Part shown: piece by piece, positions 25,678 to 51,091 of the stretch
How positions within the stretch are numbered: the stretch's first letter is position 1
How the letters are laid out: every line of letters starts with the position of its first letter
Source of the DNA: a virus
Lineage: Duplodnaviria > Heunggongvirae > Uroviricota > Caudoviricetes
DNA length: 64,000 nucleotides
Virus record (IMG/VR): IMGVR_UViG_2802429175_000002
Reading direction: 5' to 3' (one strand)
Made by a program: the position numbers and the translations under genes
The notes under the pieces: model-generated
What the model was told of the DNA's origin: nothing
The model's input: the letters and a program-made list of their open reading frames with translations, nothing else
The model's database searches: none

Positions 25678-25696
25678 AGTGTTGCACCGGGTTTCG

Positions 25697-25711
25697 TGTT
25701 CATGTGGGTAG
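25697..25711 (+). promoter_or_regulatory. conserved motif copy (TGTTCATGTGGGTAG)
   Basis: Located in the divergent control region next to the start of the leftward operon. Confidence 0.5.
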
Positions 25712-25957
25712 CGTCCGCGCGCGCACGCGCTCTAGTACCGTTCCCGACTTACGTAACGACTACCTCTATGTCAACGTGAGATGCGTTGACTGCAAGGGTT
25801 ATTCATTGCACCGAGAACCTTGCCCAAGTGGGGACGCTGCGGTCTGGAGGTTGATGCCCTTCGGGCGCCACGCCTACCCGGCGTGGGCCTCCCTAGCGGG
25901 AGGTGCGTGCTCACTGCGTTCGCACTCTCCTTTTAGGGAGGCTACGACACGGTGGAG

Positions 25958-25972
25958 GGTTCATGTGGGTAG
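25958..25972 (+). promoter_or_regulatory. conserved motif copy (GGTTCATGTGGGTAG) abutting a TTGACC box
   Basis: The motif is followed 5 nt later by TTGACC, a possible -35 element for rightward early transcription. Confidence 0.5.
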
Positions 25973-26098
25973 ACAGTCTTGACCTGCTGAAACACGTAGG
26001 AATACTCAATCGGTAAGTCCAAGAATGGGGGGATCAGTAGAATGGGATTCGAGGCTCAGGGAGGCCGAGCAAAGTAGTATCCCTTCCTGTCGACCTGA

Positions 26099-26428
26099 GT
26101 GCGCAGTCGCGCCGCCGAGGGAGTCGTGACCCTCGGCGCTCAAACCCACACGAACACAGTCGGGGAGTACCTCCACGCTGGTTGCGTGACTAGATCAGCG
26201 ACCAAGTTCCTGGAGAGTCGGAACGAAAATATCCTTGAGCTCTTTCTGCTTGATGAGGCGATTCGCGAGCGGCACAAGGAATCCGATACTGACGCGGTGT
26301 TAACGCTGAAGATCCAACGCACGCGCATATGCAAAGAGCTCCGAGGGATGGACGTGGAGCCATGGCCTCTTGATGTGGTGCAAGACAACAGTTGGCTTGT
26401 TCGCCAGCAAACTGCATCATGTGGGTAG
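26099..26428 (+). CDS. possible small early regulator (non-ATG start)
   Basis: ORF in the divergent control region with a helical core (ENILELFLLDEAIRERHKES). There is no ATG start, and the ORF ends inside the conserved motif. Weak call. Confidence 0.3.
   Translation: MRSRAAEGVVTLGAQTHTNTVGEYLHAGCVTRSATKFLESRNENILELFLLDEAIRERHKESDTDAVLTLKIQRTRICKELRGMDVEPWPLDVVQDNSWLVRQQTASCG
26417..26428 (+). promoter_or_regulatory. conserved motif copy (TCATGTGGGTAG) containing a start codon
   Basis: The ATG within the motif is in frame with the 26392..26850 ORF. Confidence 0.45.
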
Positions 26429-26850
26429 TTGATAGAATTACAGCTATGTCTACTGCTAATTGGCTACGTCGCTTGGCGCGCAAGAACAACGTTGTTGTGC
26501 TTGATGATCCAGACGCAGTATCGGCAACATTGCAGATCGCGGCCCGTCTTCTGGCAAATGGTTGGACCCAGGGATACCGCTTTGAGCGGGTAGGTGACGG
26601 TATGCGCTACGACATCCTTGGGGCTCTTGACGCCGCCGTAGGCAAGTCAGCAGCGAAGGACGACGCCCGGACCTGGTGGGGGGCCCACCGGTTGATTTCG
26701 CGAGCGATTCCAGCCGGATTTGGCGGGGATGTGTCGGCCTACAACGACGACCCGGCCCGTACGCAGGGCCAGGTAGTGGAACTCATCCGAGGAGTCGCCC
26801 GGAGTCACGGGACGGTCCTACAGGCTCAGAAGAAAGTGACACCAGCATGA
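26419..26850 (+). CDS. hypothetical protein
   Basis: The ATG at 26419 lies inside the conserved motif TCATGTGGGTAG (product MWVVDRITAMSTANW...). An alternative start is the ATG at 26446. Confidence 0.45.
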   Translation: MWVVDRITAMSTANWLRRLARKNNVVVLDDPDAVSATLQIAARLLANGWTQGYRFERVGDGMRYDILGALDAAVGKSAAKDDARTWWGAHRLISRAIPAGFGGDVSAYNDDPARTQGQVVELIRGVARSHGTVLQAQKKVTPA

Positions 26851-27065
26851 GTGATTCCAACGCGGGCACCACGATTGGCTGCACCCTCCTCTTCGGGATC
26901 CTTGCGTTCCTGAAGATCGGGCCTTACGAGAATCCAGTGCAGGACTGGTCGTGGTGGTGGGTAACCGCTCCGTTGTGGGCTGGTACCGCATTCCTACTCG
27001 TGGTCGCGGCGGTGTTCGGAATTCTGGCGCTGATACTCAAAGTGATCGACAAGAACCTCAACTGA
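26847..27065 (+). CDS. small membrane protein (two predicted transmembrane helices)
   Basis: ATGA overlap with the upstream gene. Hydrophobic segments LLFGILAFL and LWAGTAFLLVVAAVFGILALI. Confidence 0.45.
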   Translation: MSDSNAGTTIGCTLLFGILAFLKIGPYENPVQDWSWWWVTAPLWAGTAFLLVVAAVFGILALILKVIDKNLN

Positions 27066-27126
27066 TGTTTCAAATCCCATGGTGGCCATGGGCATTCATT
27101 CTTTTCGTTTTTCTCTACATAGGAGC

Positions 27127-27765
27127 ATGGTGAGCGAAGCTGTCAAGCACTCAACCCTCGCAGAGGCCCTGGTTGCCTTCCAGGCCGAAGTTGGCTTCGT
27201 CGCCAAGGACACTCAGAACCCATTTTTCAAGTCGAAGTATGCAGACCTTCCCGCAGTGATGCGTGAGGCTCAGCCCGTACTGGCCAAGCATGGACTTGCT
27301 GTGTCCCAGTTGCCGTCCTTCTACGACACCGATGGCAAGGTCTACGACACGCTCAAGACTGTTGTCATCCACGAGAGTGGGCAAGAAGTCGCTTCGACGA
27401 TGGTCCTGCACCCGGTGAAGAACGACCCTCAGGCCCACGGCTCCGCGATCACCTATGCGCGTCGCTACGCCTATATGGCTGCGCTTGGTCTCGTGGCAGA
27501 TGTGGACGATGACGGTAACGCGGCGTCGGCTCCAGCCAAGGCTGCTCCGCGTAAGGCTACGCCGAAGAAGGTCACCACCAACCCCGAAGCCGCTGAGGCG
27601 CTCGAGCGTGTGAAGGCCGCAGCCAAGGCTGCCGGTGTCGTGTCGAAGGACGTTCAGGCATGGTTCGCCGAGACGTACCCGGACGGCGGTGCGGTAGTCA
27701 GCTCCACTGATGTGGACGCACTGACCGCAACCGCTGCCCACTTCGAGCTGCTTGCGAGCGCCTAA
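27127..27765 (+). CDS. erf: ERF-family single-strand annealing protein
   Basis: ATG with an AGGAG ribosome-binding site. The N-terminus (LAEALVAFQAEVGFVAKDTQNPFFKSKYADLPAVMREAQPVLAKHGL) matches the ERF family signature. Confidence 0.7.
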   Translation: MVSEAVKHSTLAEALVAFQAEVGFVAKDTQNPFFKSKYADLPAVMREAQPVLAKHGLAVSQLPSFYDTDGKVYDTLKTVVIHESGQEVASTMVLHPVKNDPQAHGSAITYARRYAYMAALGLVADVDDDGNAASAPAKAAPRKATPKKVTTNPEAAEALERVKAAAKAAGVVSKDVQAWFAETYPDGGAVVSSTDVDALTATAAHFELLASA

Positions 27766-27806
27766 TTACTGACTGGGCCATCCCTCGGGACCGATACCAG
27801 CGACCC

Positions 27807-28664
27807 ATGCTGTTCACCCCTGACGGTGGACGCCGGGTCGCCTACTCGCGATGCTCAACGCTCGCTAAGGATCTCGACAAGCCCGGAGATGGGTTGTTCG
27901 CGTGGCACCAGGCCAACGCCATGTTCGGCCTCGCACAGAATCCCCAGCTCCTGAACCGCGTCAGGGCGATCATTGCCAAGGGCGGCACCTGGGATTCGAG
28001 CAAGGGCGAGATCCGGGAAGTCATCTCACAGGCCGAGACCATCGGCGGCGCGATGAACAAGTCCTCCCGGGGCACCTCGATCCATGACTTCACTGGCGTG
28101 CTGGAAGAGGGCAGCCTCGACTGGTCGCTGGTCGACGAGGATATGAAGCCGATCCTGGATGGCTACCACGAGTTCATCGCATCCCTTCCTGGGATGAGTT
28201 TCCTCGCGCGCGAGGTCTTCCTACAGGCGAATGACCGCATCGAGTTGCCGGATGGCCGCGTCGCCACGCTGCGTGCTGCTGGATCCGCTGATCGCATCGT
28301 CGAATGGGATGGCACTCGCTACATGGTTGACATTAAGACCGGTAAGGATGACCAGTACCGGATGGGTGTCTGTGCCCAGCTGGCGCTCTACGTCCTCGGG
28401 AGGCTCTACCAGGACTCCGCAGTCCACCAGGACATTCCGTGGGCCGACTTCTGGCCGAACGCCGATGGCACTGCTGAATTTGCCGACCACGAGTGCGACA
28501 ACGAGACCGCTCTGATGTTCCATTGCCCGCAGACACCCGACTCGCGTGGCCGCTGGAAGTGGGGGATCTACGAGGTTCCCCTTGCGCGTGGCCGAGACAT
28601 TGTTCGTGGTGGCCAGTGGGCCCGCAAGCTTCGCGTTGTTCCCGAGCTGAAGAGGGTTGCCTGA
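27807..28664 (+). CDS. PD-(D/E)xK exonuclease (Cas4/RecB/YqaJ-like)
   Basis: Motifs VDIKTGK and QLALY. It is adjacent to the annealing protein, as in two-component recombination modules. Confidence 0.6.
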   Translation: MLFTPDGGRRVAYSRCSTLAKDLDKPGDGLFAWHQANAMFGLAQNPQLLNRVRAIIAKGGTWDSSKGEIREVISQAETIGGAMNKSSRGTSIHDFTGVLEEGSLDWSLVDEDMKPILDGYHEFIASLPGMSFLAREVFLQANDRIELPDGRVATLRAAGSADRIVEWDGTRYMVDIKTGKDDQYRMGVCAQLALYVLGRLYQDSAVHQDIPWADFWPNADGTAEFADHECDNETALMFHCPQTPDSRGRWKWGIYEVPLARGRDIVRGGQWARKLRVVPELKRVA

Positions 28665-29188
28665 TGTCTGCGGAACCATCAGCAGAGCTCAGTCTCCATG
28701 GCGAGATCGATGACAAGGTCGCCCGTAAGACCCTGAGCCATCTTCGTGACATCGACATCAATACGCCTGGGCGTCCGATCGATCTGATCATCAACTCACC
28801 CGGTGGGTCCATGGAGCACGGGGACGCCATCTACGACGAGCTCGTGCGGATGTCTGTTGCGGGTGGTGGAGGCCATCACATCACCACTCGCGTGCGCGGT
28901 CGTGCTGCGTCTGCCGCTTCCTTGATCCTCCAGGCTGGTGATAAGCGCCTTGGTGGACGAATGAGCTACATCTACATGCACGAGCCGTTGTCTACGTTCC
29001 ACGACCAGACGATGGCCCAGGTGCGCAACGAGCTCGAGTTCTGTGAGAAGTGGGTGGAGCGATACATCGACGCCCATGACCGCTGCAATATCTCGTACGC
29101 CGAATTCCGTGAACGCATTCGGGATAAAGAGTGGTACCTGGCGATGGATGAGGCTGTGGCACTGGGGATTGTGGATGGTATCGGATGA
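28664..29188 (+). CDS. ClpP-like serine peptidase (S14 family)
   Basis: Motifs INSPGGS...AASAASLILQAG. ATGA overlap with the exonuclease gene. Confidence 0.6.
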   Translation: MSAEPSAELSLHGEIDDKVARKTLSHLRDIDINTPGRPIDLIINSPGGSMEHGDAIYDELVRMSVAGGGGHHITTRVRGRAASAASLILQAGDKRLGGRMSYIYMHEPLSTFHDQTMAQVRNELEFCEKWVERYIDAHDRCNISYAEFRERIRDKEWYLAMDEAVALGIVDGIG

Positions 29189-29394
29189 GTAGCGTCAGTG
29201 AGCAGCTCGAGATCCAATCCAAGCGGTTGCCGAAGTGCCACCTGGAGTGGAACTTCGCGTATCCGTGCGGAGAGCTGGCGCACCGCGATGAGGTTGGCGA
29301 ACTTACAGAGGCTCAGGCGCGAAACTACGTATCCCAGGATCCTGAGCGGAAGCTGATGCAGCGCACTGTCACTGACTGGTATGAGGCCGAATGA
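29185..29394 (+). CDS. hypothetical protein
   Basis: 69-aa ORF, translationally coupled. Confidence 0.45.
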   Translation: MSSVSEQLEIQSKRLPKCHLEWNFAYPCGELAHRDEVGELTEAQARNYVSQDPERKLMQRTVTDWYEAE

Positions 29395-29585
29395 TTGCGA
29401 ATCTGACTGTCAGTCCTGAATCGGCGAACGTCGAAGAGTTTGGCGGCAGGGTTGTGCGCTCCTTCACGTCGTGGCGGATCGACTGGCTCGAGTGCAAGAA
29501 CGATCAGGCCTGTTGCCTAGAGCGTCGCGCACTGCACTACTCAGATATCCCCTGTGTCCTGCAGGAGATCTACCGCAATGAGTGA
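29391..29585 (+). CDS. hypothetical protein
   Basis: 64-aa ORF. Confidence 0.4.
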   Translation: MIANLTVSPESANVEEFGGRVVRSFTSWRIDWLECKNDQACCLERRALHYSDIPCVLQEIYRNE

Positions 29586-29955
29586 CGAGCTAGAAGGTTA
29601 CGAATACACGGATCTCACGCCGGATCACATCGATCGTGAGTTGGATCGGGTGAACTACCTGATCACGAAATGGAACAAGATACTCGCTTGGCACCGCGCG
29701 CAGAAGGACTGGCGCGCAACTCGATTCGCTGTAGCCGAAGCACGTCAAATGATGTCTTTCGGGGGTGCGGTTGGTAAGGCAAAGGCTCACGCAGCCAAGG
29801 AGACTGAGCAAGAGCGCATCGATCTCGATATCGCCAATGCCCAGCTTGGTCTCTGTGAGCGGCGGTTGTCAGCGCTTGAGAAAGAACTGATCGCGATCGG
29901 CATGCGCTCCAAGCTGTTGGCGCAAGTATTCGGAACCGGTGGAGGAAACTTCTAA
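29578..29955 (+). CDS. hypothetical protein
   Basis: The ATG at 29578 overlaps the upstream stop (ATGAGTGA). Product is helical and charged. Confidence 0.45.
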   Translation: MSDELEGYEYTDLTPDHIDRELDRVNYLITKWNKILAWHRAQKDWRATRFAVAEARQMMSFGGAVGKAKAHAAKETEQERIDLDIANAQLGLCERRLSALEKELIAIGMRSKLLAQVFGTGGGNF

Positions 29956-30314
29956 TGGCGCGCAGGCCAATCCCAGATCCCATCCAGTTGCCCCCTCAGC
30001 GACCGCAGTTTGATCCGTTCGCGATCACATTGCCGTTCGCCATTGCTGAAGCTCCACGGACGTTCATTAACTTCCTTGCATTGCATACGAGCATCCCCAA
30101 GAGCTATCGCGAGAAGATCGCAGACTGGCTGCTTGGGTACAACCAGCTCCTCGCCGAGTATCTCCATGCGGCATACGGGCCGATGGGTGTGGCCGCAGGC
30201 GAGGCTATTGCGCAAGAGGTTGGCAAGAGCTTCCTGGAGACCGTAACCGAGCTGTACAACGAGGCCGAGGGAGACTTCTTCAATCGCCTTGAGGACGAGA
30301 TGCGCGATGAGTAG
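29955..30314 (+). CDS. hypothetical protein
   Basis: 119-aa ORF. Confidence 0.45.
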   Translation: MARRPIPDPIQLPPQRPQFDPFAITLPFAIAEAPRTFINFLALHTSIPKSYREKIADWLLGYNQLLAEYLHAAYGPMGVAAGEAIAQEVGKSFLETVTELYNEAEGDFFNRLEDEMRDE

Positions 30315-30621
30315 TTCTGCCCAGATTCCCATCTCATACGGCGAGGTCTTGTATGTGGCCCTCTCGCATGTACTCGACTACCTGGAAGAGTATGGAGAGT
30401 ACCCAGCGGGAATGGCCACGAACATGCGCGTGGTGCTCGCCTCCTACAACCATGACCGCACAAAGGCGCTGCAGGCCAGAGGAATCTCCGAAGAAGCTGT
30501 GAGGCGATATACCGCTCAGTCTGCTGAGGGTCTCGCTAAGTGGTTGGACAGCAAGGCATTGCGCGACGAGAACTCCTCGGTGCATTTCGAGGAATGGTCG
30601 AAGGAGCTGGGCCTTGAGTGA
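30307..30621 (+). CDS. hypothetical protein
   Basis: The ATG at 30307 overlaps the upstream stop. Confidence 0.45.
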   Translation: MSSSAQIPISYGEVLYVALSHVLDYLEEYGEYPAGMATNMRVVLASYNHDRTKALQARGISEEAVRRYTAQSAEGLAKWLDSKALRDENSSVHFEEWSKELGLE

Positions 30622-31066
30622 AATTGTGCTTCGACTCGTAGGTAAGTGGCCCGATGAGGGTTGGCAAGACCCGGAGACCGGCGAAGAATTCTTCAACGAC
30701 ACCGTACTTGCCGAGGGTTATGGCCAGGTTGGACGCTTCTGCGTTGGGCACAGTGACGACGGACCAGTCATTCTGGCTGCTGATGAGTACATGCTCGCCG
30801 GGAAGGGGCTCGACCCTGTTCTCATGGATAGGGATCGCATTACGGCGATCAACTCTCCTTTCGGGTTCACCATCCTGCGGTGTGACGCGGCAAACGGCTA
30901 CGTCGAGTACCGCATCCTTGATGACGACGTTGTGTGGTGGGACAAGCCAGATGCAGACACGAATCTTCGTTTCTGCGTGAGGAACTTCCACGACTGGACT
31001 CCCACCATGGACGCGCGGAGTCGGTCCCAAAGCTACATCGAGACAACGTATCTGGGGGAGATGTGA
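30614..31066 (+). CDS. hypothetical protein
   Basis: 150-aa ORF. Confidence 0.45.
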   Translation: MSEIVLRLVGKWPDEGWQDPETGEEFFNDTVLAEGYGQVGRFCVGHSDDGPVILAADEYMLAGKGLDPVLMDRDRITAINSPFGFTILRCDAANGYVEYRILDDDVVWWDKPDADTNLRFCVRNFHDWTPTMDARSRSQSYIETTYLGEM

Positions 31067-31747: not shown

Positions 31748-31928
31748 TTTTGCAGCACTGGACGCGGAACTTCGGAGCTGGACGCGCACTACTCCTGCAC
31801 CAGACCGGGTCCGCTGGCTACCCATAATCGACTTCAGGCCATGGGAGCGGGAGTTGATGCAGAAACTGCTGGGTATACAGCCAACCCCTAGTCGATTGTT
31901 CGTTAGCCTTCCCCGTCAGTTTTCGTGA
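31740..31928 (+). CDS. hypothetical protein
   Basis: 62-aa ORF. Confidence 0.4.
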   Translation: MADFAALDAELRSWTRTTPAPDRVRWLPIIDFRPWERELMQKLLGIQPTPSRLFVSLPRQFS

Positions 31929-32278
31929 CGGAGAAGCTCTGCCGCATAGAGATCCCTCAGCGCTCAGGCGGCCTGTGTGAGCGCTGCGGCATCGGGGGTG
32001 GGTTGTCCATGCACCACCGTAAGAAGAGGTCTCAGGGAGGTCCCTGGAGCCTCGACAACATCGTTCACGTCTGCGGCCACGGAACTGCCGGTTGCCACGG
32101 TTGGATTGAGCACAACCCCAACGCAGCTCACTCTGAGGGGTATCACGTAAGGCCTTGGGAAGAACCAAGTTCCATCCCGATCTACCAGCACCACCTGGGA
32201 AAGTTCACCCACATGAACCTACTAGGGGGCGAATATCATAGAGACGTTGATCTACGAGACCCATGGTCCGACAGCTGA
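31925..32278 (+). CDS. HNH endonuclease
   Basis: Cys/His pattern CERCGIGG...HH...N...CGHGTAGCH. Confidence 0.6.
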   Translation: MTEKLCRIEIPQRSGGLCERCGIGGGLSMHHRKKRSQGGPWSLDNIVHVCGHGTAGCHGWIEHNPNAAHSEGYHVRPWEEPSSIPIYQHHLGKFTHMNLLGGEYHRDVDLRDPWSDS

Positions 32279-34813: not shown

Positions 34814-34942
34814 ACGGCAAACCTCACCCAGTAGTTGTTTGGTAATCAACAATCCCCAGATTTTTACCCCATGTGACCGGGGTTACAGTCTCCTGAAAGG
34901 GAGCTGGGAGGAAGCTAATGGGGAGGTGGGGGATCGTTTGCA

Positions 34943-34955
34943 GTTCATGTGGGTG
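34943..34955 (+). promoter_or_regulatory. conserved motif copy (GTTCATGTGGGTG)
   Basis: Intergenic region downstream of whiB. Confidence 0.45.
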
Positions 34956-34977
34956 CCGCATGTCATACCCTCTCGGT

Positions 34978-35436: not shown

Positions 35437-35454
35437 TTGAAGGGATACAACCAA

Positions 35455-36081
35455 ATGACCGCTATGATCGATCACCCATCACCGGCTAGCGACCTGGATC
35501 TTGATTGGCGCAGCAAAGCCGTATGCGATCCATCTGATACCGAGTCCCACTTCCAGACGGTGGAAGACCTCGTTGAGGATGGAGTCCCGCAGGAGCTGGC
35601 TACGGAAATGGTGGCCTATGCCGAGCAGCGCGCAAAGGCCACGTGCTCGCGTTGCCCTGTGATGGATAAGTGCCGTACCTGGGCCCTGGAGAATGGGGAG
35701 GAGTTCGGCATCTGGGGTGGAACCACCCCCGCTGAGCGCGCAGCATTGCGTCCCGAGTGGCCCGCGATCAAGAAGATCACCTACCTGCCGGTGGAGCCAC
35801 TGCCTGGTGAAGCTCTTCATGAGCACAACGGTGTGGATACCCGCTACCGCAATCGCCTGGTCAAGGCACGGTTGGCTCACGAGATGCTGTCTTCTCAGCC
35901 CGAGTTCGCTGTGTTCCACCGTCGCGTGGGTCACCAGGGTCGTCAGGCATGCCTGGATGTGGTGGACGCGATCATCGCCAATCCATCCACTCCAACTACG
36001 GATCTAGCTGCACGCATTGGGAAGTCATCGAACTTCTTCAGTCAGCTGTTCAGTTTGGTGTGCCGCGAGCTGGGTATCTAG
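35455..36081 (+). CDS. WhiB-like protein with C-terminal extension
   Basis: ATG preceded by GAAGGGATAC. Cys pattern C-x(n)-CSRCPVMDKC. Confidence 0.5.
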   Translation: MTAMIDHPSPASDLDLDWRSKAVCDPSDTESHFQTVEDLVEDGVPQELATEMVAYAEQRAKATCSRCPVMDKCRTWALENGEEFGIWGGTTPAERAALRPEWPAIKKITYLPVEPLPGEALHEHNGVDTRYRNRLVKARLAHEMLSSQPEFAVFHRRVGHQGRQACLDVVDAIIANPSTPTTDLAARIGKSSNFFSQLFSLVCRELGI

Positions 36082-36149: not shown

Positions 36150-36210
36150 GCCCCGGTCGATGTATCTAGACGCCCTCTCACGCGCCGCCGACCGGGGCTC
36201 TACTTTTTCT
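36150..36210 (+). terminator. stem-loop terminator
   Basis: GCCCCGGTCG...CGACCGGGGC 10-bp stem followed by TCTACTTTTTCT. The conserved motif follows immediately. Confidence 0.45.
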
Positions 36211-36224
36211 CACCCACATGAACC
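36211..36224 (-). promoter_or_regulatory. conserved motif copy, reverse orientation (CACCCACATGAACC)
   Basis: Lies directly after a terminator. Its ATG is the start codon of the 36218 gene. Confidence 0.5.
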
Positions 36225-36466
36225 CCGACCCCGTCGATACCATTACTTACATGGATGGAAACGACTGGGGCGCAACGGCATCACTGAATGGAAGCATTCA
36301 GGCGCTCTCGGAAACCGTTGCAATACAAAGGCTTCAAGTCGCAGAGCTGAACAAGCAGGTTAGCGACGCATACTTCGCACTTGGTGAGGTCTACGGCATT
36401 GCCGTCCGATCTGGATACGCATCGATTGAACGTGCGATCGAGCGGTGGGCAGGACTCAACCGATGA
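36218..36466 (+). CDS. hypothetical protein
   Basis: The start codon lies inside the conserved motif (CACCCACATGAACC). Product MNPDPVDT... Confidence 0.5.
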   Translation: MNPDPVDTITYMDGNDWGATASLNGSIQALSETVAIQRLQVAELNKQVSDAYFALGEVYGIAVRSGYASIERAIERWAGLNR

Positions 36467-40260: not shown

Positions 40261-40275
40261 CTACCCACATGAACC
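40261..40275 (-). promoter_or_regulatory. conserved motif copy, reverse orientation (CTACCCACATGAACC)
   Basis: Its ATG is the start codon of the 40269 ORF (MNP...). Confidence 0.5.
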
Positions 40276-40538
40276 CGGGATGCCGAAATACACTGGGACA
40301 CATGGAAACTTTGAAAACACCAGGGACACAGCTCCCATTCCACTACTCCAACGGACACGTCACGGTCGCACTGGAGGATGGACGTTACCTCCTGATCGTC
40401 GCAGGGCCAGACGCGCTCGTAGCGTCGCCAAAGAGCGCCTGGGTGCAGACCGTGGAAGAGCGCAACGAGATGGCTGACAGGCTGCTCGAGGCCCTTCTCA
40501 CTGGTACGACCCTCGACTGCTTCGCGGCCTCCGAGTGA
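40269..40538 (+). CDS. hypothetical protein
   Basis: The start codon lies inside the conserved motif (CTACCCACATGAACC). Product MNPGC... An alternative ATG is at 40302. Confidence 0.45.
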   Translation: MNPGCRNTLGHMETLKTPGTQLPFHYSNGHVTVALEDGRYLLIVAGPDALVASPKSAWVQTVEERNEMADRLLEALLTGTTLDCFAASE

Positions 40539-45509: not shown

Positions 45510-45529
45510 GCACTGACTTCTCGGCGTTT

Positions 45530-45568
45530 GGGCCCCGGTTCCTCAGCGGATCGGGGCCCATTTTTATT
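45530..45568 (+). terminator. intrinsic terminator
   Basis: GGGCCCCG...CGGGGCCC stem followed by ATTTTTATT. Confidence 0.6.
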
Positions 45569-45575: not shown

Positions 45576-45590
45576 GGTTCATGTGGGTGG
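45576..45590 (+). promoter_or_regulatory. conserved motif copy (GGTTCATGTGGGTGG)
   Basis: Lies 8 nt after the terminator and ahead of the tRNA/tmRNA array. Confidence 0.5.
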
Positions 45591-45642
45591 GTCGTAAACT
45601 TAGTTCAGCAAGAGGGGCTACCAGAGCCCAAAACCTGGTGAT

Positions 45643-45713: not shown

Positions 45714-45731
45714 CAATGCCTATGTGTGGCA

Positions 45732-45761
45732 TGACATTTGAAAACTCCATAGAGATATAGT
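45732..45761 (+). promoter_or_regulatory. near-consensus sigma-A-type promoter for the tmRNA
   Basis: -35 TGACAT, 18-nt spacer, -10 TATAGT, about 9 nt upstream of the tmRNA 5' end. Confidence 0.45.
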
Positions 45762-45770
45762 TACTTCAAT

Positions 45771-46161
45771 GGGGCTGACAGGCTTTCGATTGCGAGCCAA
45801 GTCACCAGAGAAGCGTGCCGGGATGCAACGCCCGTAACAGTGCAAACACAATAACTGCAGCTTCTGCTCAGTCCGACTACGCCCTAGCTGCGTAGTTCGG
45901 TGGGGTACAACGGTTCACCCGTTCCGTGTGCCAATCCACCGTCGCCAATACGGGGACCGTCGCTCGGTTGACTAACGGTAGCGGCATACAAATTGCCTTA
46001 GTTCACCCGCCGTGAGGTGTGTAGATCGGCTGTGTACCGTGCGGTATTCCCTTCGAGGGTTTGTCTCGCAGATCGCACGGAATACGAGAAGACTGCGAGC
46101 TACGCACGTAGAGGACTGTGACAAGTCACGTAAGACCCCGGTTCAATTCCGGGCAGCTCCA
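45771..46161 (+). ncRNA. ssrA: tmRNA (ssrA), tag peptide ANTITAASAQSDYALAA
   Basis: 5' GGGGCTGACAGGCTTTCGATTGCG pairs with 3' ...CCCGGTTCAATTCCGGGCAGCTCCA, giving a tRNA-like domain with a G3:U70 pair. The internal tag ORF (45842..45895) ends ...DYALAA-TAG. Confidence 0.7.
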
Positions 46162-46450
46162 CGAGGGGGAGATCCGGGTTCGAGTCCCGGCTGGGTAGCT
46201 AGCAGCTGGCCAGTAGTTCAAGGGCAGAACACCCTCGTTAAACGACGCGTGGCCCCGGCTCGCGATCGACGTCACCACGTCGCGGAAGCGTTTCGGTGGT
46301 GATCAGCCGATTCTACGGGGAATGTGGAGAGACATCTCCGCGCGGCCATGGGGATGCCTGTGGTCACATGGATGACAGGGTAATCCCGCAGTAGGTTCCG
46401 ATAAAAAGGATCCGACCTGAGGTGCCGTACCTGGGCCCTGTTGTCCATCA

Positions 46451-46525
46451 TCTGCTTGTAGGGAAGTTTGGCCATCCCGCCTGGTTTGGGACCAGGAAAC
46501 CGCACGTTCGAATCGTGCCTGGCAG
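46451..46525 (+). tRNA. tRNA-Pro (TGG)
   Basis: Anticodon arm CCTGG-TTTGGGA-CCAGG, T-arm GCACG-TTCGAAT-CGTGC. One acceptor mismatch. Confidence 0.5.
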
Positions 46526-46705
46526 ACTGGTTAGGTTGTCAGTACACCTCCATGAGTAGGGAACTGTTCGTCTGTTCGCGGACGATAGACGTAAATTCGC
46601 GCGCTACGCCCCCCTAGCGTCAACATGGTGGGCTCTACTTGGCTTCAGGCTCTCGTGAGTCTGTGATGCGGTTGCCACGCCGTGCAGGGCCGGAAGGTGG
46701 CGTCT

Positions 46706-46778
46706 TGGCCTGTAGCTCAATTGGTAGAGCAGCGAGCTGTTAACTCGCGAGGTGTAGGTTCGAATCCTTCCAAGCCAG
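46706..46778 (+). tRNA. tRNA-Asn (GTT)
   Basis: D-arm TAGCTCAATTGGTAGAGC, anticodon arm GCGAG-CTGTTAA-CTCGC, T-loop TTCGAAT. Confidence 0.55.
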
Positions 46779-46888
46779 CGTTGGAACGTGGTGCAAGCGT
46801 AGAGCAGCCAAGCGCGACGGCGAGTGGTCAGCACATCGGCAGTCGACGGTCGAAAATGCCAGGGGAAAGCTGGTCGTTCCAAACCTAT

Positions 46889-46965
46889 CTCGTCGCGAAT
46901 AGGCGATCAACGCAGACTGTAAATCTGTTCCTTCGGGTGTGCAGGTTCGACTCCTGACGGCGAGA
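46889..46965 (+). tRNA. tRNA-Tyr (GTA), tentative
   Basis: Anticodon arm GCAGA-CTGTAAA-TCTGT, acceptor CTCGTCG/CGGCGAG, T-loop TTCGACT. The D-arm is atypical. Confidence 0.35.
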
Positions 46966-47040
46966 CAACTTCGTTGGTTGGCCGGGGCAAATGTCAACTG
47001 GGTGGCGACCCGATCGGATGCATACGGTCAAACCGCTCTT

Positions 47041-47112
47041 TGAAGATTGGTGTAACGGCAACACACGACGCTCTGAACGTCGCAGTTCTTGGTTCGAATC
47101 CAGGGTCTTCAG
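47041..47112 (+). tRNA. tRNA-Gln (CTG)
   Basis: Acceptor TGAAGAT/GTCTTCA, anticodon arm CGACG-CTCTGAA-CGTCG, T-arm CTTGG-TTCGAAT-CCAGG. Confidence 0.55.
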
Positions 47113-47194
47113 CTTTTGGGTCAACCGGTAGGTACCTGCCATGAGTTGACTGTCCGGTGGCTCGCATGCCCTCCGTCACAGAAGCATGCCGTAT

Positions 47195-47280
47195 GGAAGG
47201 CTCCGCTGAGTTGGTCGGCAACTGGCTTCGAAACCCAGGGGGCGCATCGTGTCGCAGGGGTTCGACTCCTCAGCTTTCCG
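47195..47280 (+). tRNA. tRNA-Ser (CGA), class II
   Basis: 86 nt. Anticodon loop TTCGAAA, long variable arm, T-loop TTCGACT, acceptor GGAAGGC/GCTTTCC. Confidence 0.45.
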
Positions 47281-47358
47281 CTCTAAGACTTCCACCTGCC
47301 TGAACGGTGGCTGAACAGGTGCACTGAAGATCGCGTCGGTGCTGAAATGGTGGACCAT

Positions 47359-47441
47359 GGAGAGCGCAACTAGTTAGGTGACTAGGCCTGGTTGCTAACC
47401 GGAGCGCTGTTCGCAGTAGGTTTCGAATACCTGCCTCTCCG
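47359..47441 (+). tRNA. tRNA-Ser (GCT), class II
   Basis: 83 nt. Anticodon loop TTGCTAA, variable arm GCG-CTGTT-CGC, T-loop TTCGAAT. Confidence 0.45.
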
Positions 47442-47968
47442 CGTTGCGGCGCTACCCCGCAGCCCTGAAAAGGGACTATGTGCTGTATAAGTGCACTGGG
47501 AAACCAGAGGTAGCACCCACACGAACTCTGTTGTGGGAGATATAGTTGAGACATTCGGGGCATGGCCCATAAGCCACCGCAAGGTGGTGAAAGGTGGGGT
47601 GACAACCCACCACCCGCAAGGGCAATCCATGCAATCCAATCCTCAAGCAGTCAGAGATGGCTGCCAGTGGTCGAGCTACGCGCAAGAGTCCAGGGCCGTG
47701 AACCGGTGGGACGCACCATCCCGTACGTGCGGGTGAAAGCGCTATTGGGCAAGCACACTGTGGAACGGAAGGAACTGAGTCCGAGCCTCGCAAGCAAGGG
47801 CGTGTTCCATGGAGACCATGGGTTGGGACGACGGTTCCATATCGGGTCAAAGAGTGTCGGTAGCCCAGCCAGGCCAAAGCACAAGAGGCGTGAAGCATTC
47901 TGTGCCCTAAAAGGGTTCGGAACTTCATGGGGAAGCACGTCTCTAGTCAAATCATTCTCCGCTGCGAG
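47442..47968 (+). ncRNA. candidate structured non-coding RNA (GNRA-tetraloop-rich) inside the tRNA array
   Basis: About 525 nt with no convincing ORF. It has multiple hairpins capped by GCAA/GCGA loops (CCACCGCAAGGTGG, CCCGCAAGGG, GTGGGGTGACAACCCAC). Confidence 0.35.
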
Positions 47969-48040
47969 AATGACGTAGACCAACGGAAGGTCACCAGTTA
48001 TTGGAAACTGGATGTGCGGGTTCGAGTCCCGTCGTCAATA
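47969..48040 (+). tRNA. atypical tRNA-like gene with an 8-nt anticodon loop
   Basis: Good acceptor, D-arm (GACC/GGTC) and T-arm (GCGGG-TTCGAGT-CCCGT). The anticodon stem CCAGT/ACTGG encloses TATTGGAA, which is 8 nt. Confidence 0.35.
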
Positions 48041-48334
48041 AAAAGCAAAAGTCCTTCCCCTGCCGAGGAGCAAAAGCGCCTTAATCCCAGACCCTCGGGA
48101 ATCTGGGCCGCACAATAGTCCCGCAAGGTGAGTGCGGTTTGTAGGCAAGTACTGCAGCAGTGAGACGGCCATCTCATCGCGAAGGGAAAGCCGCAGAGTA
48201 GCTTTCGGCATGACGAGTGGTTCACGGTAACGGACCAGGCGTGAGAACTAGGTCAGGGATGGCCTGGAGAAGCAGCGAATCAATAATGCTGCGAAAGGTT
48301 CTCGATAGCGGGTGTACTCTCAGCCTCTAACAAT
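48041..48334 (+). ncRNA. second candidate structured non-coding RNA in the tRNA array
   Basis: About 290 nt between tRNA genes, with several GNRA-capped hairpins (CCCGCAAGG, TCGCGAAGGG, CTGCGAAAGG) and no plausible ORF. Confidence 0.3.
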
Positions 48335-48408
48335 CGACTCTTAGCTCAGTTAGGTAAGAGCGACCGGTTGAAGCCCGGTGCGCCCCCGTTCGATTCGGGG
48401 AGAGTCGG
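48335..48408 (+). tRNA. tRNA-Phe (GAA)
   Basis: Perfect acceptor CGACTCT/AGAGTCG, D-arm GCTC...GAGC, anticodon arm ACCGG-TTGAAGC-CCGGT, T-arm CCCCG-TTCGATT-CGGGG. Confidence 0.7.
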
Positions 48409-48529
48409 CGTGTAAGGGAAACCAGGTTCCGCAGCTACTGGTGAAAAGCTGGGCACTCCACGTAAAAGGTCGCGTTGACTCGCGCGGATACGGTAGGCGA
48501 AGAACTGTCCTGCCGGAATGAGTCCTCAT

Positions 48530-48604
48530 GTCGGGGTAGAGAAGTTCGGCCATCTCGCTGTCCTCATAAGTCAGAGACCGTGGGTTCGAATCCCACCCCC
48601 GCCA
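48530..48604 (+). tRNA. tRNA-Met (CAT)
   Basis: Anticodon loop CTCATAA, T-arm GTGGG-TTCGAAT-CCCAC, D-stem GAGA/TCTC. Confidence 0.45.
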
Positions 48605-48663
48605 CGCAAAACCAGGGGCACCTGGTTGGGCCCGCCGCAGCCCAGCGCCAATGCGGCTCCAAT

Positions 48664-48738
48664 CCCGTTGTTGGGCAATGGAGCGCCCACCGCCCTACGA
48701 AGGCGCAACGCATGCAGGTTCGAATCCTGTCAACGGGT
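48664..48738 (+). tRNA. tRNA-Arg (ACG)
   Basis: Perfect acceptor CCCGTTG/CAACGGG, anticodon loop CTACGAA, T-loop TTCGAAT. Confidence 0.5.
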
Positions 48739-48802
48739 CTTAGCGCTGCCGGTACAAAGCCCGAAGAAACAGAGATGCCATGCTGCTCTGGCCAGCGCCA
48801 TA

Positions 48803-48873
48803 CCTTGTGTAGCTCAATGGAAGAGCCCCTCGCTGTGACCGAGGTTATCGCGGTTCAACTCCGCGCATAGGGA
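48803..48873 (+). tRNA. tRNA-His (GTG)
   Basis: D-arm TAGCTCAATGGAAGAGC, anticodon arm CCTCG-CTGTGAC-CGAGG, T-arm CGCGG-TTCAACT-CCGCG. Confidence 0.55.
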
Positions 48874-48897
48874 CGTACAGACACTGAAAGGCTTGAC

Positions 48898-49074
48898 ATG
48901 GTTGCAAAGCTGCGCGCGGGTATTGCCCACGCTGACATCGTCACTGCGGTAAACGCATTGATCGACGGCCTGGACGAGTTCCAGGATGTTCTCGACGATC
49001 TTCGCGAGAAGGTGGAGGAGAAGGTCGTAGCCAAGAAGGCACCGGCCAAGAAGGCAACTGCCGCCGCAGAGTAG
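48898..49074 (+). CDS. small hypothetical protein (58 aa) embedded in the tRNA array
   Basis: ATG with a GAAAGG ribosome-binding site. Product MVAKLRAGIAHADIVTAVNALIDGLDEFQDVLDDLREKVEEKVVAKKAPAKKATAAAE is helical with a Lys/Ala-rich tail. Below the ORF-track cutoff. Confidence 0.4.
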   Translation: MVAKLRAGIAHADIVTAVNALIDGLDEFQDVLDDLREKVEEKVVAKKAPAKKATAAAE

Positions 49075-49098
49075 CGGCCTCATCTATAATCGATAGAC

Positions 49099-49189
49099 GG
49101 TGTGTCTCTCGGCGAGAGGGCGGTTCGAGTCCGCAGCGTGAGGTTCTCACGTCATGGGCCCCTGGCAGGTTCGATTCCTGCGCACACCA
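49099..49189 (+). tRNA. atypical 91-nt tRNA-like gene (identity unresolved)
   Basis: 7-bp acceptor GGTGTGT/GCACACC with discriminator A, and a 3' T-arm GCAGG-TTCGATT-CCTGC. The interior holds a second TTCGAGT hairpin and extra hairpins. Preceded by a TATAAT box at 49085. Confidence 0.3.
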
Positions 49190-49194
49190 CCTAT

Positions 49195-49266
49195 GGCGAA
49201 GTGAGTGAGTGGCTAGCTGGCAGGCTGCAACCCTGACCCACGCCGGTTCGATCCCGGCCTTCGTCT
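49195..49266 (+). tRNA. tRNA-Cys (GCA)
   Basis: Acceptor GGCGAAG/CTTCGTC, anticodon loop CTGCAAC, T-arm GCCGG-TTCGATC-CCGGC. Confidence 0.45.
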
Positions 49267-49323
49267 CGACGCGCTCGGTGAGTAGGAGTCACCGTAAAGC
49301 CGACGCGGCAATATCGGCACTAA

Positions 49324-49398
49324 GCTCCAATAGCCCAACATGGCAGAGGCGACAGGCTTAGACCCTGTGCGGTGGGGGTTCGAATCCCTCTTGGAGTA
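49324..49398 (+). tRNA. class-I-shaped tRNA with Leu anticodon (TAG)
   Basis: Anticodon arm ACAGG-CTTAGAC-CCTGT, 5-nt variable loop, 3-bp D-stem with a 12-nt loop, discriminator A. Confidence 0.4.
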
Positions 49399-49465
49399 CG
49401 CATCCTGAGGCCGGTGGCAACTGGTAAGGGGATCCGCAGCCACAGCGGTCCCGCCTCAGGACTCT

Positions 49466-49540
49466 GGTCGGCTAGGCAAACCTGGCAAAGCCGCCGAGCT
49501 CAAACCTCGGTGTCTGCGAGTTCGATCCTCGCGCCGACTA
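49466..49540 (+). tRNA. class-I-shaped tRNA with Leu anticodon (CAA)
   Basis: All 75 nt are accounted for. Anticodon arm CCGAG-CTCAAAC-CTCGG, 5-nt variable loop TGTCT, T-arm GCGAG-TTCGATC-CTCGC, discriminator A. Confidence 0.45.
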
Positions 49541-49541
49541 C

Positions 49542-49613
49542 TGGGCGTTGGTGAAACGGCATCACCCTAGACTTTTAATCTACGAGTTGAGGGTTCAAAT
49601 CCCTTGCGCCCTA
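49542..49613 (+). tRNA. tRNA-Lys (TTT)
   Basis: D-stem GTGA/TCAC, anticodon loop CTTTTAA, T-arm GAGGG-TTCAAAT-CCCTT. Confidence 0.45.
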
Positions 49614-49614
49614 A

Positions 49615-49686
49615 GGGAGTATAGTTAAGCGGTTATAACTCTTGGCTCTTACCCATGAATCCCAGGTTCGACCCCTGGTGCTCCCA
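49615..49686 (+). tRNA. tRNA-Lys (CTT)
   Basis: Acceptor GGGAGTA/TGCTCCC, D-stem GTTA/TAAC, anticodon loop CTCTTAC, T-arm CCAGG-TTCGACC-CCTGG. Confidence 0.45.
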
Positions 49687-49687
49687 C

Positions 49688-49759
49688 TGGTTCGTCATCC
49701 AATGGTGAGGATACCGTTCTGATAAGACGGCAATCACAGTTCAATTCTGTGCGAACCTA
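49688..49759 (+). tRNA. tRNA-Ile (GAT)
   Basis: D-stem ATCC/GGAT, anticodon arm CCGTT-CTGATAA-GACGG, T-arm CACAG-TTCAATT-CTGTG. Confidence 0.5.
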
Positions 49760-49763
49760 CCAA

Positions 49764-49830
49764 GCGGTAGTTCCGGAAAGTGCGTGGCCTCCTAAGCCGC
49801 TGCAAGGGTGTTCGAGTCACCTCTACCGCT
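49764..49830 (+). tRNA. tRNA-Arg (CCT), short D-arm
   Basis: Perfect acceptor GCGGTAG/CTACCGC, anticodon arm GTGGC-CTCCTAA-GCCGC, T-loop TTCGAGT. Only 67 nt. Confidence 0.4.
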
Positions 49831-49833
49831 CCA

Positions 49834-49909
49834 AGCGAGTGTGATGTTTTAACGGTTTAGCATCCCTGTCTTCCAAACAGGTCGTGCCAGTTCGAATCTG
49901 GTCACTCGT
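49834..49909 (+). tRNA. tRNA-Gly (TCC)
   Basis: Anticodon arm CCTGT-CTTCCAA-ACAGG, T-arm GCCAG-TTCGAAT-CTGGT, acceptor GCGAGTG/CACTCGT. Confidence 0.45.
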
Positions 49910-50035
49910 TCGACGCCCTGAGATGGGCGACCCTCCAGTGGAGACTGCGGTTGTCGCTGGAAGTTTGGCGCGGATAGGGCATCCGCCAGGGACCTCTCGC
50001 TGCAGCATTGGCACCCTCAACCAAAAGCCCAATAT

Positions 50036-50103
50036 GCCTGGTTAGTCTGGGACGAAAGCTGGCTTACATCCAGCTAAGCGGGGTTCGATTCCTCGACTGG
50101 GTA
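50036..50103 (+). tRNA. tRNA-Val (TAC), reduced D-arm
   Basis: Anticodon arm GCTGG-CTTACAT-CCAGC, T-arm CGGGG-TTCGATT-CCTCG. Acceptor has G-U pairs. 68 nt. Confidence 0.4.
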
Positions 50104-50177
50104 CGTAGCGGGAAGGATCGGTTCGATACCGAGCCAGTTTCGGCTGGATAGTGTAGAGGAATGCACACCCGCGCCAG

Positions 50178-50251
50178 GCCTCATTAGCTCATCCGGCTAG
50201 AGCACTTCCTTAGTAACGAAGAGGCGCGGGGTTCGAGACCTCGATGAGGCC
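50178..50251 (+). tRNA. tRNA with AGT anticodon (Thr-like), tentative
   Basis: Perfect acceptor GCCTCAT/ATGAGGC, D-arm GCTC...GAGC, anticodon loop TTAGTAA, T-arm CGGGG-TTCGAGA-CCTCG. Confidence 0.4.
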
Positions 50252-50343
50252 CTATGTTCAGTCTGCGGCCATGTTCAGGAATCCTGAACAGCTACGTGGA
50301 TTGAACACAAGTTCAGACCCAGTCTTGTCAAAACGGGGACCAT

Positions 50344-50417
50344 GGGGGCGCATGTTCCAAGGTGGCGACCGATCCTTGCAAGATTGGTGTGGTCGCGTTC
50401 AATTCGCACCGTCTCCA
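50344..50417 (+). tRNA. tRNA-Ala (TGC)
   Basis: Anticodon arm CGATC-CTTGCAA-GATTG, acceptor GGGGGCG/CGTCTCC with a G3:U70 pair, discriminator A, T-loop TTCAATT. Confidence 0.4.
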
Positions 50418-50524
50418 CGGGAGTTTTGGCCAAGCAGCTCCAGGGTTTGATTCCCAGAAAGTTGGCTCAGGTTGTTCGTACCTGCCCCGGTGGCCTCGAA
50501 AACCACTGGGGGTAAACGTCCAAT

Positions 50525-50598
50525 CGAGTCGTAGCTTAGTGGACTAAAGCACTGCCCTGTCACGGCAGGGGACGCGGGTTCAAATCCCGTCGACTTGA
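50525..50598 (+). tRNA. tRNA-Asp (GTC)
   Basis: D-stem GCTT/AAGC, anticodon arm CTGCC-CTGTCAC-GGCAG, T-arm GCGGG-TTCAAAT-CCCGT. Confidence 0.6.
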
Positions 50599-50599
50599 C

Positions 50600-50938
50600 G
50601 TGAGTAGAGAACGAGTACTGTCTGTAACCCTCGCGGATTGTCGTGTTGACACATTCCGGTCTGGGGGCAAGGGCGGTCAAAACCAGAACAAGCGCGAGAC
50701 AGGTGTGCGGATTACCCACGAACCGTCCGGTGCTGTGGGTGAGTCGCGCGAGGAGCGTAGCCAGCTGCAGAACAAGCAGGCTGCGTTCAAGCGTATGGCG
50801 AGCTCGCCCAAGTTCCAGCTATGGGTGAAACGTCAGGTGGGTCGCGAAGACCTACAGCGTGCCCAGGTAGAGCGTGATATGTGGCCGGTGAACCTCAAGA
50901 CTGAGGTCCGCGAATCCGGCAAGTGGGTTGAGCAATAA
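50600..50938 (+). CDS. arfB: ArfB-like peptidyl-tRNA hydrolase (release-factor GGQ domain)
   Basis: GTG start directly after tRNA-Asp. GGQ motif RSGGKGGQNQNKRETGVRITHEPSG with a basic C-terminal tail. Confidence 0.6.
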   Translation: MSRERVLSVTLADCRVDTFRSGGKGGQNQNKRETGVRITHEPSGAVGESREERSQLQNKQAAFKRMASSPKFQLWVKRQVGREDLQRAQVERDMWPVNLKTEVRESGKWVEQ

Positions 50939-50943
50939 CCCTA

Positions 50944-51014
50944 AGGTCCATTGGTGTAGTGAGAGCACACCACCCTCTCAAGGTGTTGGTGCGGGTTTGA
51001 TTCCCGCATGGACT
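50944..51014 (+). tRNA. tRNA-Glu (CTC)
   Basis: Acceptor GGTCCAT/ATGGACT, anticodon loop CTCTCAA, T-arm GCGGG-TTTGATT-CCCGC. Confidence 0.5.
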
Positions 51015-51019
51015 ACTCG

Positions 51020-51052
51020 AAAGGCCCTCAGCGAAAGCTGGGGGCCTTTTTC
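51020..51052 (+). terminator. intrinsic terminator closing the RNA array
   Basis: AGGCCC...GGGCCT stem followed by TTTTTCG. Confidence 0.55.
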
Positions 51053-51066
51053 GTACCCACATGAAC
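51053..51066 (-). promoter_or_regulatory. conserved motif copy, reverse orientation (TACCCACATGAACC)
   Basis: Lies immediately after the terminator that closes the RNA array. Its ATG opens an 11-codon ORF (MNPSALNTIGT). Confidence 0.5.
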
Positions 51067-51091
51067 CCTAGTGCCCTCAATACCATTGGTA

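Follow-up and report, generated by a model that had tools for sequence, protein, structure and literature searches.

We found that a short sequence, (Y)ACCCACATGAACC, repeated in the 64,000-nt stretch of IMG/VR record IMGVR_UViG_2802429175_000002 (the window), is most likely the upstream half of each promoter in a phage promoter family, about nine members of which can be predicted in the window. The motif is also most likely the binding site of a phage-encoded, lineage-specific regulator. The window itself is a MabI-type Mycobacteroides prophage related to Cluster M. It shares ~ 82% nucleotide identity with three M. abscessus prophages (prophiT49-2, prophi86-1 and prophiGD54-2), is distant kin of the M. 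smegmatis Cluster M phages, and carries a short repeat in many copies in a genome of the Cluster M type, long and of siphovirus kind with a tRNA array and a serine integrase far from attP. It carries 20 tRNAs, a transfer-messenger RNA (tmRNA) and a GOLLD RNA; its gene content was transferred from prophiT49-2 by tblastn. The literature places these prophages in Cluster MabI and describes them as Cluster M-like in organisation, their genomes of ~ 80 kb encoding a tmRNA and more than 20 tRNAs as well as a serine integrase (PMC9934374, PMC8092301).

The repeat was searched for across the window as GGTTCATGTGGGT with up to two mismatches, strand signs giving the orientation of GGTTCATGTGGGT. The search returned 12 matches against 1.76 expected, a count reached in none of the 100 shuffles that served as control. 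Six copies were exact, at 25958 (+), 32207 (−), 36212 (−), 40263 (−), 45576 (+) and 51055 (−). Two had one mismatch, at 25697 (+) and 34942 (+), and four had two, at 9551 (−), 26144 (−), 26414 (+) and 47515 (−). The motif topped all 10- to 12-mers of the window in over-representation, and a scan of the window at three to four mismatches, combined with a −10 element, gave no additional copies. The copy at 9551 is probably a chance match, because it lies within a tail gene and lacks associated signals. A preliminary description of this DNA had recognised the repeat, which the counts above bear out, but it listed only eight to ten copies, overlooking those at 32207, 26144 and 47515. It was right that a purine follows GGGT, which is so at every copy, and wrong that the copies are always intergenic: the one at 32207 lies inside the 3′ end of an HNH gene homologue (31922–32275), and those at 26144 and 26414 are in or at annotated coding sequence. 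Its partial copy at 56768, CCCATGTGGG, matches at just 8 of 13 positions and forms the stem of a leftward terminator-like hairpin, and therefore does not count as a copy.

The promoter assignment rests above all on fixed geometry. Behind seven copies, an nAnnnT hexamer came after 13 nt (14 nt at site D) and was succeeded by a further 6–7 nt (Table 1). A predicted leaderless ATG came directly after this at four of the seven (sites A, E, F and H), and a short leader at the others. A [T/A]AnnnT hexamer stood at offset 13–14 in 7 of 11 copies (P ~ 7e-10); the hexamer and ATG coordinates were checked by script. With the ATG as + 1, the motif spans approximately −39 to −26, the location of a −35 box, and no TTGACA-like hexamer could be placed 16–19 nt from the −10. 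The start codon lies 26–27 nt downstream of the motif, beyond the −10 hexamer, with no Shine-Dalgarno (SD) sequence there. The hexamers are of the group-1, sigma-A type (nAnnnT), and several are weak (AACACT, TAGCCT). Mycobacterial sigma-A promoters typically carry TANNNT, and at least about a quarter of mycobacterial mRNAs are leaderless.

The motif orientation agreed with the direction of transcription at seven of the nine good copies. The other two are inverted, site R before the resolvase/long-WhiB unit and site G before the tRNA array, and have a spacer of 11 nt, again fixed. Site C and the 26414 copy are degenerate and without a −10. Four copies lie within the 740-bp divergent control region. 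The predicted promoters head two leftward units of the control region, the SSB/replication genes, two downstream gene blocks, the GOLLD RNA unit and the genes past the tRNA array; in relatives a further one heads the left-arm operon. Sites E and H adjoin a hairpin with a U-run, and site G is preceded by a strong terminator. Since terminators adjoin the sites, the motif is predicted to mark the points where transcription re-starts. Terminators had been described before three reverse copies; a hairpin and U-run indeed end at 36212 and 51055, but the copy at 45576 is forward, not reverse. From the earlier proposal of a phage-wide operator or start-associated site, we retain a genome-wide regulatory site linked to transcription starts and leaderless translation, but not the geometry proposed for it.

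Table 1. Motif copies, terminators and related features of the window, with the predicted promoter elements
Feature	Position	Strand	Motif form	Spacer (nt)	−10 hexamer	Distance to start (nt)	Predicted start or context
Site A	25697–25709	−	ACCCACATGAACA on − strand	13	AACACT (25683–25678)	6	ATG 25671–25669, predicted leaderless start of first leftward gene (prophiT49-2 gp64 homologue)
Site B	25958–25970	−	exact	13	TAGCCT (25944–25939)		predicted start ~ 25932; no ATG
TTGACC-16-AATACT	25979–26006	+					sole sigma-70-like two-hexamer match in control region
Site C	26144–26156	+	degenerate ACCCACACGAACA		no conserved −10 in MabI		directly behind strong hairpin 26113–26138
26414 copy	26414–26426	−	degenerate, GCATCATGTGGGT on + strand		no −10 either way		stop/start overlap of gp65 and gp66 homologues
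Site D	32207–32219	+	exact	14	TATCAT (32234–32239)		in 3′ end of HNH gene
Site R	34942–34954	+	inverted, AGTTCATGTGGGT on + strand	11	TACCCT (34966–34971)	6	ATG 34978 (putative)
Long WhiB gene (213 aa), candidate reader	35437–36081	+					WhiB domain, residues 24–104; ~ 110-aa helical C-terminal domain with HTH-like pattern
Terminator-like hairpin and U-run	36150–36211	+					closes long-WhiB transcription unit; adjoins site E
Site E	36212–36224	+	exact	13	TACCAT (36238–36243)	7	predicted leaderless ATG 36251
Site F	40263–40275	+	exact	13	TACACT (40289–40294)	7	predicted leaderless ATG 40302; motif 2 nt past stop of upstream gene
Intrinsic terminator	45529–45560	+					15 nt before site G
Site G	45576–45588	+	inverted, exact	11	TTAGTT (45600–45605)		between terminator and tRNA array (tRNA-Trp 45643)
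Site T	47515–47527	+	variant ACCCACACGAACT	13	TATAGT (47541–47546)		predicted start ~ 47554; no direct ATG
Intrinsic terminator	51019–51054	+					after tRNA-Glu; adjoins site H
Site H	51055–51067	+	exact	13	TACCAT (51081–51086)	6	predicted leaderless ATG 51093

The same geometry bears on where the downstream genes begin. The preliminary description took the ATG within the motif as the start codon of the genes at 36218 and 40269. In Rey, Bongo and Reindeer, whose own motif has no ATG, the homologues of the gene after site E (MDGNDWG... vs MSEQCWG...) align from the ATG 33 nt downstream (36251). Judged by this alignment, the motif ATG is not the start codon of that gene, and it is probably not that of the gene after site F, because the same fixed geometry is found there. 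Deposited starts differ for these two genes: prophiT49-2 uses the motif ATG (16074, 19694) and prophiGD54-2 the downstream one (16921, 20876). The Cluster M alignment, which covers the first of the two, supports the downstream ATG. The distance between the two ATGs is fixed at 32–33 nt by the promoter geometry, so an in-frame motif ATG is no evidence for coding.

We therefore consider it extremely unlikely that the motif is itself the transcription start and a leaderless start element, with its central ATG as the start codon. In its favour, genes 87 and 97 of prophiT49-2 are annotated in GenBank from the motif ATG, and the motif ATG of the 26414 copy, which the preliminary description noted as an in-frame ATG of the 26392 ORF (open reading frame), coincides with the annotated start of the gp66 homologue. 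The latter is the sole such case, in a degenerate copy at a stop/start overlap. The Cluster M alignment and the prophiGD54-2 annotation speak against it, and the in-frame relation at the other sites is a consequence of the fixed 33-nt geometry. Moreover, the motif ATG at 51055 is out of frame and meets a stop after 11 codons, and no −10 hexamer is found 6–7 nt upstream of the motif ATG at sites D, E and H. The tie to transcription starts and leaderless translation, which the preliminary description had also drawn, stands; the motif as the start site or start codon does not, given the separate −10 downstream.

The promoter layout is conserved among the relatives of the window; absence of the motif from homologous positions, which the preliminary description had named as refuting its proposal, is not what is seen. 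Every homologous position in prophiT49-2 and prophiGD54-2 has the motif, and prophiT49-2 bears one additional copy in the divergent region that precedes the terminase genes, beyond this window. An IMG/VR scan for motif-N13-TA yielded eight multi-copy prophage contigs, six of them of ~ 80 kb, with the same sites as MabI; the remaining matches were single and consistent with chance. Distinct orthologous sequences from the two GenBank MabI prophages and the eight IMG/VR contigs were compared site by site. The motif columns were 95–100% conserved, and the spacer length was fixed except at site B (13/14 nt). The spacer bases closest to the motif varied, as did the inner hexamer bases (TACCAT/TACGAT/TAGCAT; TACACT/TAGACT/TAAACT), with the ATG retained. 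The available literature gave no description of the MabI motif, text searches for the motif sequences turned up nothing relevant, and RNA-seq data on MabI prophages were absent from the mBio 2021 paper.

In the Cluster M phages Rey, Bongo and Reindeer, the equivalent sites carry a different 12-mer, TCCTGTAATCAC, with a 14-nt spacer to a −10-like hexamer. Three copies are in the control region, and further copies follow the long WhiB gene and precede SSB, DnaQ and the tRNA array. One control-region copy heads the first leftward gene, with a predicted leaderless start, and another precedes a conserved AAAGGACAGTGCGAACGCAGTGAGC. Counterparts in Cluster M exist for sites A, B, C, D, E, G and H, with homologous flanking genes; the first rightward gene of the window (gp65 homologue) showed no clear homology to its Cluster M counterpart. 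When aligned on the −10, ACCCACATGAACC and TCCTGTAATCAC are identical at 5 of 12 positions. An inverted, extended variant, CTGACCTGCGATTACAGGATCG, follows the tRNA array in Rey and Bongo, among other places. In Kumao, a phage of the same family, CACCRGAA-N5-nAnnnT occurs 8 times (8878–32916) against 0.11 expected, and several of these copies are then followed by a putative leaderless GTG or ATG. Kumao also has a separate right-arm repeat, GTAATAACCCACTGCCGG.

The Cluster M phages were reported to have conserved repeats CR1–CR4 (PMC7953290, citing Pope et al. 2014, J Virol 88:2461), of which CR3 and CR4 lie in the rightmost region behind stem-loops (PMC7953290). A second repeat is present in the window as well: (C)ACACGGAAGGGATAC-N2-6-ATG occurs in 8 copies ahead of the leftward right-arm genes (57706–63452, −), most with a TGTATTnA-like −10 ~ 20 nt upstream, and is the counterpart of CACACGGAGAAGGGAA in Rey. 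(C)ACACGGAAGGGATAC is probably a CR3/CR4-type, SD-containing start-associated sequence. Because it fits the CR3/CR4 description, TCCTGTAATCAC and its inverted variant (CTGACCTGCGATTACAGGA) are, by elimination, probably the published CR1/CR2. Literature text searches for CR1–CR3 found nothing relevant. The preliminary description held that neither of its options, operator or start element, had been characterised; this is only partly true, as the related Cluster M phages are reported to have named repeats (PMC7953290).

On this assignment, the window motif and CR1/CR2 share the phage family, genome architecture, repeat size, genomic sites, a −10 at fixed distance, leaderless starts, and forward and inverted versions in both lineages. 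They differ in sequence (ACCCACATGAACC vs TCCTGTAATCAC) and spacer (13 vs 14 nt), and on either side of the tRNA array MabI and Cluster M have opposite orientations. The window motif also lacks the extra CTGACCT of the inverted Cluster M variant. In position and architecture the element groups with the conserved repeats of Cluster M, a kind known since 2014; sequence and spacing set it apart. Bongo, Rey and Reindeer are reportedly homoimmune.

As the same promoters carry a different sequence in sister phages, and all the hosts are mycobacteria, we infer that a host sigma factor is not the reader of the motif. A phage protein would instead bind the motif and couple to RNA polymerase, most likely acting positively by supplying the missing −35 contact, so that, once early expression has taken place, a single regulator could turn on a whole group of transcription units. 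Activation is favoured by strict spacing despite unrelated spacer sequences, by the rule of orientation, by the placing of promoters behind terminators and by several weak −10 hexamers. We put the chance of such a positively acting reader only just short of even. The candidate activator is the long WhiB protein. Its gene occurs in MabI, in Kumao and in those Cluster M phages that tblastn returned, and the protein encoded in the window is identical to a RefSeq ‘MULTISPECIES ... [Mycobacteroides]’ entry. The last helix, SSNFFSQLFSLV, is invariant in MabI; its equivalent RGEYINSMLRE is nearly invariant in Cluster M, and that of Kumao differs. In each of the three lineages the putative recognition helix thus has a sequence of its own, as does the motif.

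WhiB1 and WhiB7 bind sigma-A region 4. If the WhiB domain of the long protein likewise docked on sigma-A region 4, its C-terminal tail would sit over the −35 position, where the helical domain could read the motif; such a protein would be an analogue, in one polypeptide, of AsiA/MotA of T4. In its boldest form, which we regard as unlikely, the proposal is that the WhiB fusion, docked through its Fe-S WhiB domain, is a single-polypeptide ‘sigma appropriator’ that would redirect host RNA polymerase to a −35-less, leaderless phage regulon, with its specificity re-written in each lineage (MabI, Cluster M, Kumao). A contig profile scan with the long-WhiB alignment gave, among the matches listed, only generic WhiB domains and no further full-length relatives. 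The Cluster F phages, considered as a parallel for their 215-aa WhiB, were set aside, as that protein has an unrelated Cys-rich tail and no repeated motif accompanies it. The preliminary description had proposed both the WhiB-like proteins and a helix-turn-helix (HTH) protein (22558–22878, Pfam HTH_58) as binders. The former suggestion remains viable. The latter does not, because the HTH_58 gene sits in a ~ 2.5-kb insertion found only in the window and one IMG/VR contig, and the motif is kept in prophages without it. This insertion (20346–22932, relative to prophiT49-2) lies between the NrdH and oxidoreductase genes, is seen elsewhere only in prophage contig L098, and holds three leftward ORFs, for a 202-aa lipoprotein-like, a 356-aa Gln/Pro-rich and the 106-aa HTH_58 protein.

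Several observations weigh against this activator model. All promoter calls are sequence-based. No match to its C-terminal domain was found with Pfam, PDB-sequence profiles or a word index, nor with Foldseek against the PDB at E < 1; the AlphaFold2 model of this domain is poor (predicted local distance difference test score of 61), and the ‘HTH’ assignment is pattern-based only. The covariation of helix and motif spans only three lineages and is weak support, since it would be expected of any lineage-specific protein. The long WhiB gene itself is downstream of sites D and R. A −35 box is often dispensable in mycobacterial promoters, and the motif promoters could thus be constitutive and the motif a repressor site. 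An operator accommodates the two well-conserved inverted copies (R and G) and the orientation swap around the tRNA array more readily than does an element of a directional promoter. A −10 is lacking at copies C and 26414, copies are densest in the divergent control region, as operators would have it, and the complete replacement of the motif from one lineage to another is reminiscent of how immunity specificity evolves.

These points lead to the alternative that the motif is the operator of an immunity repressor, which in the lysogen would cover −39 to −26 of every lytic promoter and block host RNA polymerase. The promoters would then be constitutive, −35-less sigma-A promoters, and the copies without a −10 (C, 26414) and the inverted ones would be extra operators or roadblocks in stoperator fashion. 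We see this as a serious possibility, although clearly below an even chance. At 13 bp, asymmetric and in ~ 11 copies placed mostly along transcription, the motif is like L5-type sites (PMC9934374), and the location of the repressor in MabI prophages was stated to be unclear (PMC8092301). Four copies crowd the 740-bp control region, the inverted copies are conserved, and the motif is wholly different between MabI and Cluster M, while Bongo, Rey and Reindeer all share one and the same form. The dispensability of a −35 box in mycobacterial promoters also suits this alternative. However, occlusion would not require a strict 13/14-nt distance to the −10 with unrelated spacers, and the weakness of several −10 hexamers (AACACT, TAGCCT) is at odds with it. 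Nor was a repressor-like HTH gene found among the 17 window products scanned (Pfam and/or PHROGs), except for the one in the non-conserved insertion; the scanned right-arm and control-region proteins gave no repressor-like family. The activator and repressor-operator models are not mutually exclusive.

It is very unlikely that the motif is the site of a host factor, that is, the −35 element of an alternative sigma factor or the borrowed box of a host regulator. Its 3′ half, TGAACC, resembles −35 elements of the SigL or ECF (extracytoplasmic function) type. Nevertheless, no ECF-type −10 (CGT) was found at 16–17 nt, and the hexamers are of the group-1 type. Moreover, sister phages have unrelated sequences at the same promoters, and multi-copy occurrence in IMG/VR is confined to the eight prophage contigs that share the MabI sites.

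For promoters recognised through a phage regulator, the closest functional analogy is with the MotA-box promoters of T4. T4 middle promoters likewise pair a sigma-70-type −10 with a phage box that lies near −30, at a fixed distance and in place of the −35; here, by contrast, there are no MotA or AsiA homologues, and the proposed reader is the candidate WhiB fusion. The stoperators of L5, Cluster A and MabJ resemble the motif in being asymmetric, 13–14 bp long and present in many copies, mostly in short intergenic gaps; their orientation is linked to transcription (PMC9934374), and that of the motif follows it at 7 of the 9 good copies, with 2 inverted; we count ~ 11 copies here vs 14 stoperators in prophiT49-3 (PMC9934374). 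Stoperators, however, occur within transcription units independently of promoters, just one true operator being located at a promoter; they have no fixed distance to a −10 and act on elongation, whereas the window motif would be an integral part of a promoter. The stoperator-like placement envisaged in the preliminary description is contradicted by the 7 of 11 copies at a fixed 13–14 nt from a −10. No L5 gp71-like repressor was identified. The likeness of GGTnnATGT to the L5 consensus GGTGGMTGTCAAG is within chance. The start-associated sequences (SAS) of Cluster K and CR3/CR4 of Cluster M are also phage-wide short repeats tied to gene starts. Unlike the motif, they contain the SD region directly upstream of the start codon, a role played here by (C)ACACGGAAGGGATAC. 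The Streptomyces phage phiC31, another actinophage, repeats many times over a conserved early promoter or operator sequence that is particular to the phage and does not resemble the host consensus, but the sequences are unrelated, and its CIRs (conserved inverted repeats) are inverted repeats bound by a known repressor.

Within the control region, the layout of site A is repeated in prophiT49-2, prophiGD54-2, Rey, Bongo and Reindeer. The predicted leftward transcript from site B is ~ 230 nt long, and its 5′ end, AAAGGAGAGTGCGAACGCAGTGAGC, is nearly identical in MabI and the Cluster M phages. After AAAGGAGAGTGCGAACGCAGTGAGC, the region 25705–25935 (−) has GC-rich hairpins and no conserved ORF. 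It could be a regulatory RNA or a leader; a consensus RNA fold between sites B and A gave a covariation term of just −0.78 kcal/mol, which is unconvincing. The TTGACC box noted earlier beside a control-region copy was found as TTGACC-16-AATACT, 8 nt right of the copy at 25958, and may be an early rightward promoter that does not depend on the motif. Its −35 is formed in the window by TGACCTGC(GG) (25980–25987), which lies immediately right of site B and is conserved in MabI and Cluster M (prophiT49-2 ~ 6068; L004 ~ 3178), but the −10 is not. CTGACC also recurs beside the Cluster M repeat copies. The Cluster M equivalent of site C has CACACT, 7 nt and a putative leaderless GTG. A function of the 26414 copy is doubtful.

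Further right, the predicted leader from site D runs ~ 50 nt to the SSB gene (ATG 32300), and Cluster M has TCCTGTATTCAC and TATTCT at this position. Site R precedes the resolvase and long-WhiB genes; a leaderless start there is doubtful, because the resolvase homologues begin ~ 28 codons past the putative ATG. The Cluster M copy at the position of site G is in forward orientation and is followed by TAATCT. The site T variant is identical in all relatives, and its predicted start is ~ 330 nt upstream of a full-length Rfam match to GOLLD RNA that sits within the tRNA array (47883–48326, +; 193 bits, gathering score 150). The site T promoter may drive the variable 5′ half of GOLLD RNA. A ‘tRNA-??? 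(tg)’ call at 47969–48040 is embedded in the GOLLD match, and an Rfam tmRNA match (45771–46164, +; 95 bits) is absent from the ARAGORN output, although relatives have a tmRNA annotated there. Site H heads a 37-aa hydrophobic ORF (51093–51206) and other ORFs in the window, and RtcB in prophiT49-2. The first 11 nt of the coding sequence after site H, ATGAAGGAATT, are kept whether RtcB or the 37-aa ORF follows. The window (51093–52405) lacks a counterpart of the RtcB-like RNA ligase that is present in prophiT49-2 and prophiGD54-2.

These results provide a sequence-level promoter map for a group of M. abscessus prophages and correct gene starts where deposited annotations are split between the motif ATG and the leaderless ATG. 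They also place the ‘conserved repeats’ of Cluster M in a single positional system, with its sequence exchanged from one lineage to another, and they narrow the search for the regulator, whether immunity repressor or activator, to one DNA target and one candidate protein. If the reader is a repressor, the site would define immunity groups, which is relevant for the choice of therapeutic phages. If it is the WhiB fusion, the long WhiB protein would represent a new phage route to re-programming mycobacterial RNA polymerase, and, together with its motif, a compact orthogonal promoter/regulator pair for mycobacterial genetics.

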